Notes: generated by a model not told the origin, from the letters alone. A stretch of 64,000 nucleotides of DNA from an uncultured Gammaproteobacteria bacterium (GCA_963779055.1 CAVZWN010000004.1:610233-674232); one strand, 5' to 3'. Numbered from the stretch's first letter, positions 42,345-52,678 are shown. A program made the numbers and translations.

Positions 42345-42429
42345 TGGTGCCGATGAGCAGACTCGAACTGCTACGGCTTTCGCCACTACCCCCTCAAGAT
42401 AGCGTGTCTACCAATTTCACCACATCGGC
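42345..42429 (-). tRNA. tRNA-Leu (anticodon GAG)
   Basis: The minus strand reads GCCGATGTGGTGAAATTGGTAGACACGCTATCTTGAGGGGGTAGTGGCGAAAGCCGTAGCAGTTCGAGTCTGCTCATCGGCACCA. The 7-bp acceptor stem GCCGATG/CATCGGC is intact, with a long variable arm, TTCGAGTC T-loop and encoded CCA. The anticodon loop is TTGAGGG. The secG-tRNA-Leu-nuoA position fits. Confidence 0.9.
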
Positions 42430-45771: not shown

Positions 45772-46272
45772 GGAGCAGGTGCTCGCAAAATGGATGGAGC
45801 CACTTTTATCACGCACGCCAGCCGCATGTCAAAAGCAGCCGGTAATGATCACTTCACTCTCGGCACCTCCAGACCTTACACGCGAAGAAGGACACTTCAG
45901 ACACGGAAATCCATGACACCCTCACCCTTCCTGATGCGATCAGCCAGCCAAGGGAAAGCCACCGGCCAGAAGCCTTTGGATGGAGTAAACTGCCACACAG
46001 GAGATCAGCGCGCTCCCGGCCCGGCTTTTCATGGTACGGACATCAGATGACTGCGCAGCCGACTCGATGAAAATGCCTAAAATGATCCTGGATTGAAGAA
46101 TGGATAGCGCCCTTCTGGTTGCTGCTGCCGTCTTTGCCTGGCTGTTTCTCAGGTTCTACTTTGTAAATTTGTGACAGCGACTTGATGGCGCTTCCATCAC
46201 ATCTGGCAAGAAACCCGGAGTAAATAATTGAAAAAACGACTGATCGGAAAGACACAACCCGTGGATGCATCC

Positions 46273-46704
46273 ATGCAGAAAAACTGGCTGGACGTGACCG
46301 ATTTGGTGGAAGTGGAAATCACTTCTGAAGACGCCGCACACCCGATTGAGGCTGCATTGCTGCCCGATGGTACGGGGTGGCGTGCTGCAGAGCCGGGCAA
46401 GCAGACGATCCGGCTGATATTTGCTGCCGCGCAAGATATTGCGCAAATTTATCTCAGTTTCATTGAGCCGGAACTTCAACGCACCCAGGAATATGACTTG
46501 CGCTGGTCTCCCGATGGGGGCCGGTCATTTCAGCACATCGCCAGGCAGCAATGGAATTTCAGCCCTTCCGGAGCAACGTCGGAAACCGAGCATCACGACG
46601 TTCACCTGAGCGGCGTGACCGTTCTGGAGTTGAACATTACGCCCGACATCAGCGGAAATCATGCCCTGGCTTCTATCGCGCAGTTTCGGATAGCACAGGT
46701 TTAA
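46273..46704 (+). CDS. Conserved hypothetical protein (about 143 aa), possibly with a galactose-binding-domain-like fold
   Basis: MQKNWLDVTDLVEVEITSEDAAHPIEAALLP...GWRAAEPGKQTIRLIF...QEYDLRWSPDGGRSFQHIARQQWNFSP. GC-rich native-looking codon usage. The family assignment is from memory only. Confidence 0.6.
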   Translation: MQKNWLDVTDLVEVEITSEDAAHPIEAALLPDGTGWRAAEPGKQTIRLIFAAAQDIAQIYLSFIEPELQRTQEYDLRWSPDGGRSFQHIARQQWNFSPSGATSETEHHDVHLSGVTVLELNITPDISGNHALASIAQFRIAQV

Positions 46705-47129
46705 CTGACACAGCGCAGGGTAGGGCTGATTTTGCATGGGGTCACCTGGCAGAAGAGTCATTTTTAACGACGGCTTTTCTGCCAATAGCTGTCAGATGAC
46801 ACCATGACTCCTAATCGTCACTTTCGACACGAAGCCGTCTGATGTCAAATGGAAGTAATTTGGCTGCTTATTGAAAACAAAGCGGCCAATCTAGGAAATC
46901 CTTCGTAGGTCGGCAACTCGGCCTTTGCCGCCATTAGGCGCTGAAGTGCATTACGTCTGTTGAGTGCCAATAGCGGAACTTCGCAAAATACACAAAGCTT
47001 CCCTTCGCTATGGGTGGTACGGATTACTATGGCGATTTGCTCGGGCCATTGGTGTACTTATTCTAATCAACGAAATTTGATATTCTCAAAACGTTAAAAT
47101 CAGTCAATCACGTAGAAGAGATATGTGCA

Positions 47130-47921
47130 ATGTCAATATCGCTAACGCCATACACACTCGGAACGCTTTGCAGTGGTTTCAGCTGGACTGTTGCCGACGA
47201 AGACTTGCTGGCCGATCAAATTGCACGTATTGCTTTGGGGCACTCGCGACATGTTCAGAAAATCTTGGCTGGTGCAAATTTGGCGGAGCCATTAACAACT
47301 GCCAGTGCAGAAACAAGTGCCATCGCTATGCTTACAGTTACAAATGGAAGCGATCCATGGCATCGAGATGGCTGGCTTTTTCAAGCAATGTCATGGATAG
47401 CTGCAAACAAGGCATCACCAGGAGGATTGATCCGTTCTCCTCAGATGACTTTGGCCCAAAAGGGGTTTGATGGTTTACAACTTGAATTGGATACGAATGC
47501 CGGGACAGTTTCCGCAGCCATCATTTTTGAGGATAAGGCAACGGAGAATCCACGCAATACGATTCGAGATGATGTCTGGCCTGAATTCAAAGCGTTTGAA
47601 TCGGGTGACCGAGATAATGTTCTGACCGCCGAAATGATAGCAATTTTGCAGACACATCCGAATATTGATCCTGATCTTGCAATTCAGAATATCCTGTGGA
47701 ATGAGGTTCGTCGCTACCGCATAAGTATTACCGTCGGAGATACTCATTCTGATGATGCCGGTCGCAAACGGCTCTTTAATGATTACGATACATCCGTTGT
47801 AGGTGATATTCAGCGGCGCCGAGGTGAAACAATTCAGATCAACAATCTCAGACAGTGGATGAATAACTTGGCCCAGAAAGTAATTGCTGCAATTCAAGTG
47901 CGGGTGGCAGCAAATGTTTGA
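47130..47921 (+). CDS. PD-(D/E)xK-like nuclease candidate, HamA-like partner of the helicase (263 aa)
   Basis: The ATG-initiated ORF overlaps the helicase start by 8 nt (ATGTTTGA). It has GFDGLQLEL (D114) followed by AAIIFEDKA (E134-x-K136), i.e. a D...ExK signature. Size and gene order match the DUF1837/HamA component of Hachiman. Family membership has not been verified. Confidence 0.6.
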   Translation: MSISLTPYTLGTLCSGFSWTVADEDLLADQIARIALGHSRHVQKILAGANLAEPLTTASAETSAIAMLTVTNGSDPWHRDGWLFQAMSWIAANKASPGGLIRSPQMTLAQKGFDGLQLELDTNAGTVSAAIIFEDKATENPRNTIRDDVWPEFKAFESGDRDNVLTAEMIAILQTHPNIDPDLAIQNILWNEVRRYRISITVGDTHSDDAGRKRLFNDYDTSVVGDIQRRRGETIQINNLRQWMNNLAQKVIAAIQVRVAANV

Positions 47922-50496
47922 TACGGATACTGTTGCATTAATGTCACGTGCGCCTGCATTGAGCGGGCTGAATATGACCGAATTACCACAACGCCTTACA
48001 AACGCTTACGCATCAATTGTTGCTGCCAGAATACGTTTAAGGACGACAGAAGATGCTAGTGAGATACCGGAGGGCTTGGCTGAAATCGTACGCGAGATGA
48101 AACGGCTTGCGTTCACTCATGAAGCATTTGTGTCCGCTATCTCCAACCGGGAGAATCGAGCCTCTGCGGCTTTCGTTGCAGGGGCGGCGCATCATGTTAG
48201 CTTGCTTGCCGAGACGATACGAAACAGAGAGCCACGACCAAGCTATCTGGGATTCCAAGCCATTTCGCCTGAAGTTTCTGCAACCTTACTGTTTCTTATT
48301 GCAGAATCTAGCGCTGACTCCGCTGAGCTTGCAAAAGCTATCGTTGTTCCAACTGACTTCACAGTTGAATCCGCCCTGCTTGCTGCAATTAAACATTTGG
48401 CAAATGGTCAGTTGCGACAGCTTGTAAATGTGCAGTGCCCCACTTCAGAACAATTTCTGGCTACTGACTTAAGCAATCAAGCGGTACAAACCCTTTATCA
48501 CCTGCTATTTAAAGGTATTCGGGCCTTGGCATTTACCATGCTCGGCGAGGAGGATTTAATCGAAGAAACCCCTGACGCTTTATTCAGTCGAGTTAAAAGC
48601 CTATGCGTTGAGCCAATTGGAAATATTTTCAACAGTGAAGAAGTGCCATACTTCAGCTTGTACCCTGGGCCGCTACATCTAGCATCCTTGCTGGCCTCTG
48701 TTGCAAGGGATATCACTTCATCAGCCCTAATAAACATAACGCCTCCTAGCCTGACTGATGGTGACACGTGGTCAAGATTTATGCGTGGAATCGCAGAAAG
48801 ACGGCCCTATTTGTGGCGAAATCACCGGCAAGCCATTGAGGCTGGTTATTTGGAGCCCGGGACGTCTGCGGCTGTTAGCTTCCCGACCGGAGCTGGAAAA
48901 TCAACTCTAGCTGAGTTGAAAATTGCAGTCACTATTCTGCGCGGTTTTAAGGTTATTTTCCTTGCGCCAACTCTTGCCCTCGTAGACCAGACCGCAAATG
49001 CTATGGCGACTACGTTTCCAGGAAATCAAGTCCAAAAGGAGCTGGTAGAAGCACTTCCTTTTAATATTGATGAGGATGGACTATCGGCAATTACCGTCAT
49101 GACTCCTGAACGGTGCCTAGCGATGCTAAGTTTTGATGACGGCATCTTCAATCAAATTGGACTGATCGTGTTTGACGAATGTCATTTATTGCACCCTCGT
49201 GATACTGACAGAAGTCGTCGTGCTATTGATGCCATGCTTTGCATACTGAATCTGACTAGAGTGGCTCCCGGAGCGGATTTGCTCTTGCTTTCGGCAATGA
49301 TGAGAAATACCGCCGAGATTGCTGGTTGGATACAAAGCCTCACCAGCAGACCCTGTTTACCACTAGAGCTGACTTGGAAACCGACCCGCCAGGTGCGGGG
49401 GTGCGTAGTTTATGGGTCAACAGAAATTAACGCCCTTCAGAATCGACTTGATGAAGCAAGAGCGGAATATACAAACAAGAATGCACCCACCGCAGTAAAA
49501 CGCGAACTGGTTGCATTGCCATATGGTTTTTTCTGTCTAAGTCAGACTTGGCAATCACAGGAACGAAGTAACTATGCGCTGCTTCAGTTGCTTGATGACA
49601 ATGTGCAACTTGGTACTGGGACTGCAACTGATCCTGATCGTTGGTACTTAACTCCGAACGGGAACGAAGTTGCCTCCGCTATAGCGGAGGCCACGGCTCG
49701 ACAACATTTGAAGACGCTAGTTTTTACACAAACCATACCTTTAGCGAATAGTGCCACTAAAAATCTTAGTCGTCGCCTAGGTCGCCCAGGCTGTGTGCTA
49801 ACTGAAGCAGAAATACTTCTCTTTGAAGTGGCTGTGGATGAGGCTGGGGGACGTAATCATATTTATCTTGAAATCGATGCTGATAATGGCCTTGTTTCAT
49901 CATGCGCTTGTCATCACGGACTTTTGTTGGCGGTCGAGCGCCATTTGCATGAGTCCCTGTATAAAAGGCCAGATGGAATCAATGTCCTTGTGGCGACCTC
50001 CACACTTGCGCAAGGAATGAACCTGCCAAGCGAAGTTGTCATCATCGGCGGTGATCGTCGTTTCGATCCAGGTCAAAACAGAATGGAGCAACTTGAGGCT
50101 CATGAACTATTAAATGCAGCTGGTCGTGCGGGGCGTGCGGGGGAGGCTTCATATGGTTTCGTTCTCGTTGTGCCTAGCAAGGTAGTTCATTTCAATAATG
50201 AGACGAGCAGAATTCATCGGCATTGGGCAGATTTACAGGCCATCTTCGCGCAAAGTGATCAATGTCTCGTAATTGATGATCCATTGGAGGCTTTACTTGA
50301 TCATATAAATCTTTCTGCGACGGAATTGACTCCGATGGATAGCTATTTTATCGGAAGGCTTCCTATTGGTGAGCAGGCGAATGAAGGTGGAAATGACGCG
50401 CCCGCTCGTGCGCTTCTTGGCAGATCTTGGTGCGATCATGCTGCGATTCACGCTAAAGAAAGTTTGCGCTCATCAATTCCAATAATGAAAAAATGA
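47914..50496 (+). CDS. Superfamily-2 Ski2-like DExH helicase, HamB-like (about 860 aa)
   Basis: Motif I FPTGAGKST (48880-48906), Ia APTLALVDQ, TPER, II DECH (49174-49185), III SAM, V ATSTLAQGMNLP and VI AAGRAGRAG (within 50113-50142). These are preceded by ~320 aa with no recognisable motif. ATG 47914 is preferred over track start 47884. Confidence 0.8.
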   Translation: MFDTDTVALMSRAPALSGLNMTELPQRLTNAYASIVAARIRLRTTEDASEIPEGLAEIVREMKRLAFTHEAFVSAISNRENRASAAFVAGAAHHVSLLAETIRNREPRPSYLGFQAISPEVSATLLFLIAESSADSAELAKAIVVPTDFTVESALLAAIKHLANGQLRQLVNVQCPTSEQFLATDLSNQAVQTLYHLLFKGIRALAFTMLGEEDLIEETPDALFSRVKSLCVEPIGNIFNSEEVPYFSLYPGPLHLASLLASVARDITSSALINITPPSLTDGDTWSRFMRGIAERRPYLWRNHRQAIEAGYLEPGTSAAVSFPTGAGKSTLAELKIAVTILRGFKVIFLAPTLALVDQTANAMATTFPGNQVQKELVEALPFNIDEDGLSAITVMTPERCLAMLSFDDGIFNQIGLIVFDECHLLHPRDTDRSRRAIDAMLCILNLTRVAPGADLLLLSAMMRNTAEIAGWIQSLTSRPCLPLELTWKPTRQVRGCVVYGSTEINALQNRLDEARAEYTNKNAPTAVKRELVALPYGFFCLSQTWQSQERSNYALLQLLDDNVQLGTGTATDPDRWYLTPNGNEVASAIAEATARQHLKTLVFTQTIPLANSATKNLSRRLGRPGCVLTEAEILLFEVAVDEAGGRNHIYLEIDADNGLVSSCACHHGLLLAVERHLHESLYKRPDGINVLVATSTLAQGMNLPSEVVIIGGDRRFDPGQNRMEQLEAHELLNAAGRAGRAGEASYGFVLVVPSKVVHFNNETSRIHRHWADLQAIFAQSDQCLVIDDPLEALLDHINLSATELTPMDSYFIGRLPIGEQANEGGNDAPARALLGRSWCDHAAIHAKESLRSSIPIMKK

Positions 50497-50624
50497 ATCG
50501 CCGTGCAGTTCACCGAAAATTTGGATTGATTGAACCATATTTATCTCCTGCTATGCCTGAAGAGAATTTTGCTGACACGCTCGGCAGGGTCAAGAGTGCG
50601 GTGTTGGCTGCCTCGTTATTTTGA
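50493..50624 (+). CDS. 43-codon ORF ATGA-coupled to the helicase stop (separate small gene, or the helicase C-terminal tail displaced by a homopolymer miscount)
   Basis: MNRRAVHRKFGLIEPYLSPAMPEENFADTLGRVKSAVLAASLF. Its ATG (50493-50495) overlaps the helicase TGA (50494-50496) directly after an A6 run. It is below the 60-aa track cut-off. Confidence 0.25.
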   Translation: MNRRAVHRKFGLIEPYLSPAMPEENFADTLGRVKSAVLAASLF

Positions 50625-50897
50625 TGAATGCAATTAGCGCCAATGTCAGGAGTGGGGGCGGAAGCGGAAATGGATCAGATGAACTCCAGTGGCAGCTCAG
50701 GCCGAGTTGCTGTCCGAACGTTAACGGCGGCGAATGTCTGCTTCGGCAGGAGTTACCTGCCGTTCAACTTCGTAGATTTCTGATCCTCTGGATGACCGGA
50801 CCTGGCACTCAGCACCCATTCGCCACCCGAACAGAAGAGTCCTCTTGCGCTGCATTGCTGACGCCCAGCCAGACCAAGTCTGGGCCAGTCTACGTAA

Positions 50898-52110: not shown

Positions 52111-52678
52111 TCAGGCTGCGTCGGCGGCTGACATGACGGTTGCGCCCAGCCCGGTCAATTCAGCCAGCATCTGCTCGTCGCCCTGACCGGTGCGTACGGC
52201 ATCACGCAGCACCACCACCGGATAACCCAGCCGGAGCGCATCACGCACGATGGCAGCCACGCCATCGCCCAGGCCGCCGACCAATATGCGCTTCACCCCG
52301 TACATCATGAGCTGGAATTCCAGCTGGGTTCCGGCAAAGCCGGTCCCGCCTGCCTGATCCTGAACCTCTCTGGAAATTATCATGGCAAATGCAGGCAAAC
52401 CCAGATCGGGCGCAAACTCTGACCCAGCTGTTTCTGCCACGCAATGCGCCGGCAGCTTCCCGCCCTGCGGCTGAAAGGGTGCATGATCGGCAGGGTGCCA
52501 GAAGCGCACGGCATAAATTGGAAAACCCCGCGGATGGAAAATATCGATCATGCGGTTGAGCGGACGCGATCACTTCCTCACCCCCGGAAACGGCCATGCT
52601 GCCGCCGGGCAAAAAATCCTTTTGCACATCGGCGACGATCAGCGCATCGCCTTCTTTTATCACCAGAGGCTCGCTCAT
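52111..52678 (-). CDS. Isochorismatase-family hydrolase (nicotinamidase PncA-like), one apparent frameshift near 52561
   Basis: N-terminus MSEPLVIKEGDALIVADVQKDFLPGGSMAVSGGEEVI (ORF 52241..52678) joins LNRMIDIF..GFPIYAVRFWHPADHAPF...HCV (ORF 52111..52551) in the neighbouring frame. Confidence 0.75.

Follow-up and report, generated by a model that had tools for sequence, protein, structure and literature searches.

A probable, sequence-divergent Hachiman-type cassette with a damaged helicase gene in an uncultured gammaproteobacterium

A 64-kilobase (kb) stretch of DNA from an uncultured Gammaproteobacteria bacterium (GCA_963779055.1, CAVZWN010000004.1:610233-674232), hereafter the window, with coordinates counted from its first letter, carries next to hemW a cassette of two genes that encode a small protein of 263 amino acids (aa) and a large Ski2-like helicase. 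This is probably a horizontally acquired, sequence-divergent cassette of the Hachiman (HamAB) type, present in the window as a recently damaged and most likely defective copy. Hachiman is among the more common helicase-based immune systems. The pair has its architecture, both of its predicted folds and its catalytic motif but not the Pfam domain by which it is usually defined, and is thus regarded as a variant of Hachiman rather than as a plain member.

Gene structure and composition of the cassette

The cassette consists of two co-directional open reading frames (ORFs) on the plus strand. The first, at 47130-47921, is an intact hamA-like gene for a predicted PD-(D/E)xK nuclease of 263 aa, with a fold match to HamA and outside PF08878. 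The second, at 47914-50496, is a truncated hamB-like helicase ORF of 860 aa counted from its ATG. The hamA-like stop and the hamB-like start lie within an overlap of 8 nucleotides (nt) at 47914-47921 (ATGTTTGA) that is read directly in the sequence. All motifs of a superfamily 2 (SF2)/Ski2-like helicase quoted in a preliminary description of this DNA (GAGKST, TPER, DECH, SAM, ATSTLAQGMNLP and AAGRAGRAG) were found in the translation of the second gene, as was the quoted D...ExK signature in that of the first. The GC content at third codon positions (GC3) is 0.398 and 0.403 in the two cassette genes vs 0.61-0.81 in fur, folE, hemW, rdgB, rph and pp2c. The cassette region also contains the 3.5 kb with the lowest GC anywhere in the window (minimum 0.472; mean 0.565, standard deviation 0.029), and GC is 0.473 across the block 47098-50637. 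No integrase, transposase or methyltransferase was found among the ORFs of the island. The positions of the two genes, their overlap, the abrupt change to an AT-richer composition and the lack of these three kinds of genes agree with the preliminary description.

The same gene order was found in all 80 genomic loci carrying the small-protein gene that were compared (labeled in the series L001 onward), with the helicase gene directly downstream of the small gene. In each of these loci, the helicase alignment begins at residue 1, and this start falls between 4 nt upstream and 31 nt downstream of the final residue aligned in the small protein. No third conserved gene was found beside the pair among the family loci.

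Fold and active site of the small protein

Homologs of the small protein number more than 666 in a 90%-clustered database, where all are designated 'hypothetical' and none has a Pfam domain, and the family comprises 475 clusters at 50% identity (E<=1e-3). Residues D80, G81, W89, P104, G112, D114, E134, K136, R230 and R241 are invariant in a sample of 47 divergent members with identities down to 28%. The protein of the window keeps all of them, with E134 and K136 within the motif IFEDKAT, and the D...ExK signature of the family is, as judged from this conservation, of the PD-(D/E)xK type.

The AlphaFold2 model of the small protein has a predicted local distance difference test score (pLDDT) of 82.5 and a predicted template modeling score (pTM) of 0.81. 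A Foldseek comparison of this model with the PDB revealed only two matches at E<=0.001, both of them HamA chains (8vx9_A and 8vxy_A). The match to 8vx9_A (E 7.7e-7, probability 1.0, template modeling (TM) score 0.60) extends over the full length, with 283 columns against a target of 259 aa. The next match after HamA has an E value of 0.05, and CdiA-CT, Mus81 and Avs3 all appear at E>=0.05. Judged on the model, the small protein resembles HamA in its fold and in the geometry of its active site, while its sequence places it outside DUF1837; its nuclease activity is a prediction from the fold and from D114, E134 and K136.

Searches with the sequence itself gave no such relationship. The small protein has no match at E<=1 in Pfam (including PF08878, HamA/DUF1837), the PADLOC v2 models or PHROGs, a sequence search of the PDB returned nothing meaningful, and two profiles compared with the PDB yielded no HamA match. 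A search of NCBIfam, also without a match, was uninformative, since canonical HamA and HamB controls did not give a specific match either. Three canonical HamAs that served as positive controls for PF08878 match it above the family cutoff, and all 120 matches listed from a HamA profile search carry PF08878.

Domain structure of the helicase

The helicase of the window matches the Pfam families DEAD (6.6e-18) and Helicase_C (2.5e-5). Its best PADLOC family is HamB1 (1e-36), with the RecA core alone covered; canonical HamBs match their own PADLOC models with E=0 and those of other HamB subfamilies at 1e-134 to 1e-35. Judged on the PADLOC match, the helicase family is distantly HamB-like by sequence; sequence matches in the PDB include SLH1, ASCC3, Brr2, Ski2 and HamB. 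The PADLOC and Pfam check proposed in the preliminary description gave a distant HamB match for the helicase and no HamA match for the small protein.

An intact homolog of 1102 aa, P0390, which is 93% identical to the window helicase, was modeled as the representative of the family (pLDDT 84.1). Its predicted layout comprises an all-helical region (1-300), RecA1 and RecA2, a winged-helix (WH)-like part to about residue 835, and an all-helical C-terminal domain (839-1101). The three top Foldseek matches of P0390 are HamB chains (E 1.2e-26 to 3.8e-23, query TM score (TMq) 0.65-0.66, about 1200 aligned columns), while Hel308 and PolQ reach a TMq of about 0.45 over about 860 columns. The comparison of single-chain models with the PDB ranked HamA first for the small protein and HamB first for P0390. 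The N-terminal ~320 aa, previously called unassignable, are predicted to form an all-helical domain; the corresponding region of P0390 (1-300) appears to fall within the full-length HamB alignment, whereas Hel308 has no such domain. In the E. coli complex, HamA is bound through a helical bundle at the N-terminus of HamB (PMC12278908).

Assignment to Hachiman

Several results weigh against the assignment to Hachiman. None of the 47 divergent members of the small-protein family matches PF08878 or the PADLOC HamA models, and the structural fit to 8vx9_A is moderate (TM 0.60, root-mean-square deviation 5.8 Å, 11% identity). Alignment of the small-protein profile with HamA profiles of 3 and 13 sequences by hhalign gave non-significant probabilities of 18% (P 0.0013) and 7% (P 0.005), respectively. 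As for the helicase, eukaryotic SLH1, ASCC3 and Brr2 score above HamB in the sequence comparison of the core, and the all-helical C-terminus of P0390 does not contain the oligonucleotide/oligosaccharide-binding (OB)-like barrel described for E. coli HamB. On the supporting side, both hhalign runs cover the catalytic core only, pairing D114 with D119, E134 with E138, and K136 with K140, and HamA D119, E138 and K140 are the residues mutated in structure 8vxy (PMC12278908). A scan of viral contigs for further HamA sequences yielded just two loci.

These nulls could be explained if the small protein were an unrelated PD-(D/E)xK nuclease that was recruited by a HamB-like helicase and converged with HamA, in a system distinct from Hachiman. 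The lack of significant sequence or profile similarity to HamA and a structural alignment identity of just 11% would fit such an origin, as would the varied partners with which HamB-like helicases pair, for example PADLOC PDC-M23B (1.5e-27) and the AbpA fusions. Nevertheless, convergence is unlikely. The fold match extends from end to end of the protein and singles out HamA, with other nucleases at E>=0.05; the lengths are nearly equal (263 vs 259 aa), the spacing of D80/D114/E134/K136 resembles that of HamA D81/D119/E138/K140, and the gene order and overlapping junction are as in canonical hamAB.

Given the PF08878 and PADLOC nulls, the membership of the small protein in Hachiman is placed at the level of the fold only. 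The Hachiman architecture claimed in the preliminary description stands as to the linkage of the genes, both folds, the accessory status and the defense and mobile context described below, but PF08878/DUF1837 could not be detected by sequence. The caveat given there, that the small protein may fall outside DUF1837, was borne out by every sequence test.

A deletion in the helicase gene

The closest DNA relatives of the cassette identified by blastn are L082 and L083 (92.6% identity) and L081 (88%). The block they have in common with the window (47098-50637, plus strand) is broken by a deletion junction at 50429-50459 on the same strand, where 31 nt are present in place of the 629 nt of the relatives. 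Positions 47098-50428 correspond to L082 5808-9138 with 92.6% identity, and positions 50460-50637 to L082 9768-9948 with 85.6% identity; the homology on the left stops at 50428 and that on the right is firm from about 50460. DNA comparison with L081, L082 and L083 shows a net loss of 598 nt; as this number is not divisible by three, the reading frame shifts. No clear microhomology or repeat was found at the junction.

The ORF of the window is native to about residue 838, covering the N-terminal helical domain, RecA1, RecA2 and the WH-like part, and continues with about 22 frameshifted residues to its stop at 50496. Everything from about residue 839 of the ~1100-aa helicase is thus deleted or frameshifted, and the C-terminal helical domain is gone. 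The last ~63 codons of the hamB-like gene persist out of frame at 50430-50621 (plus strand), followed by the ancestral stop at 50622-50624. A tblastn search with the C-terminus of P0390 matched this remnant with 70% identity (E 1.5e-22) in a frame other than that of the ORF, and its translation contains no internal stops. Since the divergence of the remnant does not exceed that between intact relatives (0.865 vs 0.824), the lesion looks recent. The ~860-aa helicase of the preliminary description therefore exists as an ORF but is not the native form of the protein. The ~400 nt of non-coding DNA reported on each side requires correction downstream, where the 3' end of the helicase gene was overlooked.

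Across the family, the median helicase length is 1100 aa, and nearly all of the best 120 homologs have 1090-1114 aa. The C-terminal domain is retained at 75 of the 80 loci, with W852, R856, W876, W912, W968, C991 and R995, among others, being invariant, which implies that it is under strong constraint. The cleft for nucleic acid in E. coli HamB is made up by the helical region at its C-terminus, which shifts position as the enzyme ratchets (PMC12278908). With the counterpart of this region lost, the copy of the window is most likely a defective remnant in which the nuclease gene is intact and the sensor helicase crippled, and for the source genome it is not to be counted as an active defense system. 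The functionality implied in the preliminary description, with a fixed stoichiometry of the two proteins and a proposal to clone 46.9-50.7 kb, is undermined by the deletion and frameshift that it had missed.

Damage was also seen in other helicases of the family: those of L011, L028 and L058 have no C-terminal domain, and those of L016, L022, L069 and L079 change frame. This suggests recurrent decay of the helicase, possibly reflecting a fitness cost, or else sequencing errors in metagenome-assembled genomes.

Two other explanations of the deleted allele bear on the state of this copy. The first is that the deletion stems from faulty assembly or from a minority allele, with the genome itself carrying an intact ~1100-aa helicase and a working cassette. 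A Logan contig of 4456 nt from another sequencing run (ERR12035938) encodes a small protein 100% identical to that of the window, followed by a helicase of 1102 aa. Given this contig, the deleted allele could reflect an assembly artefact or a minority variant in a polymorphic population, contrary to the interpretation as a damaged copy. Moreover, the exact helicase protein of the window is absent from the protein collection, where the best match is 93% identical, and a frameshift near a run of five C in the isochorismatase-family gene beside hemW hints at indel errors in the assembly. However, a clean loss of 598 nt with a 31-nt junction is atypical of homopolymer-type errors, the junction has no repeat that could explain an assembly collapse, and truncated or disrupted helicases recur at the seven loci listed above. 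We therefore regard an artefact or a minority allele as improbable.

The second explanation is that the 860-aa helicase is still functional, so that the window holds a working 'minimal' variant that keeps both RecA domains and the N-terminal part that would bind the nuclease. From the N-terminal domain through RecA1 and RecA2, with all motifs, the sequence is indeed undamaged and has 93% identity to that of the intact relative, the small gene has every invariant residue, and a few short helicases are known in the family (L011/P0419 with 800 aa, L026 with 871 aa and P0421 with 853 aa). Against this stand the conservation of the C-terminal domain with its invariant residues in 75 of 80 loci and the role of the corresponding HamB region in the nucleic-acid cleft and in ratcheting. 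The out-of-frame remnant, in addition, marks a lesion rather than an evolved short form. A functional minimal variant is thus very doubtful, and a recently damaged cassette is the interpretation followed below.

Distribution and genomic context

The cassette is accessory at the hemW locus. It was found in none of 80 related hemW neighborhoods, about 39 of which include at least 4 kb on the cassette side and all of which belong to distant relatives only (HemW 53-70% identical), while the synteny pp2c-rph-rdgB-hemW is kept. The presence/absence comparison that had been suggested for this locus, together with the non-native composition, thus points to an acquired element. The family loci span Alpha-, Beta- and Gammaproteobacteria, Acidobacteriota, Verrucomicrobiota, Planctomycetota and Bdellovibrionota, and the module resides on 16 plasmids, most of them conjugative or mobilizable. 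Where RefSeq annotation is given on these plasmids, the pair is recorded as 'hypothetical protein' and 'DEAD/DEAH box helicase', and canonical systems are labeled HamA/HamB.

The cassettes of the closest relatives adjoin phage-type integrases and type I restriction-modification-like genes. At L081 (1401-4575), a gene with a faint match to Methylase_S (type I specificity) and a gene for a 667-aa HATPase_c_3 protein lie directly 5' of the cassette, and a phage-type integrase lies 3' of it. A census of the 100 longest ORFs flanking the family loci with Pfam and PADLOC showed that the phage integrase is the most common Pfam family (7). Strong PADLOC matches comprised pAgo (3), OloB (2) and SIR2-APAZ (2), and canonical HamB, QatC, DrmC, a type III restriction endonuclease (REase_III), PD-Lambda-3 and SoFic were each matched once. 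The plasmid pBIND01 of Beijerinckia indica (L087, 69777-84311) carries an intact cassette, and its neighbors there are two TIR-domain proteins, a DUF4365 protein and a pair of uracil-DNA glycosylase and NTP pyrophosphohydrolase; this region looks like a plasmid defense island that holds additional unassigned genes. At one locus among L001-L064, the nearest large neighbor of a divergent cassette is a canonical HamB (PADLOC HamB1, 3e-299), and two Hachiman-type systems thus stand side by side at that locus.

Defense and mobile neighbors, patchy distribution and accessory status give contextual support to a putative anti-phage role. A DNA repair or recombination module, composed of a Hel308-like helicase and a structure-specific nuclease, is highly improbable: the helicase is related to the Hel308, PolQ and Hef-type repair helicases and the nuclease has weak fold matches to Mus81, but the pair is patchy across phyla, occurs on plasmids, has atypical GC, is absent from orthologous loci, is surrounded by integrases and defense genes rather than repair operons, and is often disrupted.

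Borders and neighboring genes

The cassette lies in a housekeeping neighborhood, with the genes in the order fur, GTP cyclohydrolase I (folE), an orphan ORF of 143 aa, the cassette, hemW, an isochorismatase-family gene, rdgB and rph. Upstream, homology by blastn begins at 47098 with L082 and L083 and at 47129 with L081. The AT-rich spacer at 46705-47097 has no homology to the DNA upstream of the cassettes of the closest relatives, and the GC of 46705-47129 (0.459) is low like that of the cassette. Downstream, the homology of the relatives stops at 50637, and the spacer to the 3' end of hemW (50638-50897) has a host-like GC, rising to 0.53-0.56. No promoter-like site was found on the plus strand upstream of the first cassette gene, and the sole terminator-like site is weak. 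At the flanks of the island, no tRNA, Rfam family, mobility gene or convincing att-like direct repeat was found. An imperfect inverted repeat of 26 nt (arms at 46908-46933 and 50690-50715, 81% complementary) brackets the cassette. Its core 13-mer shows no enrichment across the window (4 matches vs 2.45 expected), so that the repeat is not dispersed there, and its significance is doubtful. A second pair of 12 nt does not line up with it, and neither is interpreted as transposon ends.

The orphan ORF (46273-46704, plus strand), located between folE and the cassette, has a host-like GC3 of 0.61. It has no match in Pfam and forms a singleton cluster in a collection of 15 billion proteins. In one related locus (L137), folE directly adjoins hemW, and the variable region around the cassette may therefore reach from about 45817 to 50897.

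The isochorismatase/nicotinamidase-family gene beside hemW (52111-52678, minus strand) is split over two frames. Its N-terminal part (MSEPLVIKEGDALIVADVQKDFLPGG...) is found in the ORF 52241-52678 and the rest in the ORF 52111-52551 (positions 34-175 of Pfam Isochorismatase), with the frame switch close to the C5 run at 52581-52585. The gene is either a pseudogene or the product of an indel error, a question that touches on the quality of the assembly. The only tRNA gene of the window, for tRNA-Leu (anticodon GAG; 42345-42429, minus strand), lies between nuoA and secG; it accounts for a dip in GC at about 42 kb that has no relation to the island.

Proposed mechanism and implications

By analogy with E. 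coli HamAB (PMC12278908), the ~1100-aa Ski2-like helicase of an intact system would survey DNA with the 263-aa PD-(D/E)xK nuclease bound to its own helical N-terminal domain. Loading of the helicase on a damaged DNA end or a 3' end, together with ATP hydrolysis, would then activate or release the nuclease. With D114, E134 and K136 as its putative active site, the nuclease would degrade DNA indiscriminately and lead to abortive infection.

In the literature, Hachiman has been defined and surveyed through DUF1837/IPR014976 of HamA (PMC13064477; bioRxiv 2025.07.28.667249), and no description of a HamA-fold partner outside DUF1837 was found there. The cassette points to a large and widely transferred clade in which the predicted folds of HamA and HamB and the catalytic triad are retained although its sequences escape those models. 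We tentatively propose, at somewhat less than even odds, that the small-protein family (at least 475 clusters at 50% identity) and its ~1100-aa helicase constitute a distinct, uncatalogued type of Hachiman, in which the effector shares only the fold and the triad with HamA and the C-terminal module of the helicase is different and all-helical. If so, this type has been missed by surveys seeded with PF08878/IPR014976 and by the PADLOC v2 models tested, current estimates of the prevalence of Hachiman are too low, and the clade is a natural comparison for the essential features of the HamA-HamB interface. A profile for the small-protein family would improve the annotation of defense systems, and the family offers a second, very distant set of sequences for studying how a Ski2-like helicase controls a nuclease.

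Comparison with known systems

The helicase domains of Hel308/Hjm and Pol theta have in common with the family the architecture of RecA1, RecA2, WH and a helical C-terminus, and they are its second-tier fold matches (TMq ~0.45 vs 0.65 for HamB). However, they are core genes with neither an N-terminal helical bundle nor a dedicated nuclease partner, and a core repair function was rejected on context and distribution. The helicase also matches the PDC-M23B models of the PADLOC candidate system PDC-M23 at 1.5e-27 to 3e-30, more weakly than HamB1. Membership in PDC-M23 was rejected, as the small protein is matched at E<=1 by no PADLOC model, those of any PDC-M23 partner included. A proposed Hachiman variant, AbpAB (YfjL/YfjK) of E. 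coli K-12, which responds to DNA damage (PMC12278908; PMC10732053), likewise combines a Ski2-like helicase with a partner containing a HamA-like domain. AbpA carries a Cap4-like endonuclease fused at its N-terminus and a HamA-like domain without catalytic activity, whereas the small protein described here has a single domain of 263 aa with an invariant triad. Membership in AbpAB was rejected for want of a Cap4 fusion and in view of the intact active site.

The nearest known system is Hachiman HamAB of E. coli ECOR31 (PDB 8VX9, 8VXA and 8VXY; Tuck et al., Cell 2024, PMC12278908). Unlike HamA, the small protein has no PF08878/DUF1837 or PADLOC HamA match, shows 11% identity in the structural alignment and carries the motifs PWHRDGW, KGFDG and IFEDKAT, as compared with GDLGEI, GDDV and TEAKSR in HamA. 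Unlike HamB, the helicase of the family is matched by profiles over the RecA core only and has a predicted C-terminus that is all-helical and without an OB-like barrel, and the helicase of the window has no C-terminal domain at all. Nevertheless, the cassette shares with HamAB an overlapping, co-directional pair of genes, in which a nuclease gene of ~260 aa precedes a large Ski2-like helicase in the same layout as in canonical loci. HamAB also provides the best PDB fold match for both proteins, with the D...ExK triad at equivalent positions, a predicted all-helical N-terminal domain in front of RecA1 and RecA2, and an accessory and mobile occurrence in the context of defense islands.

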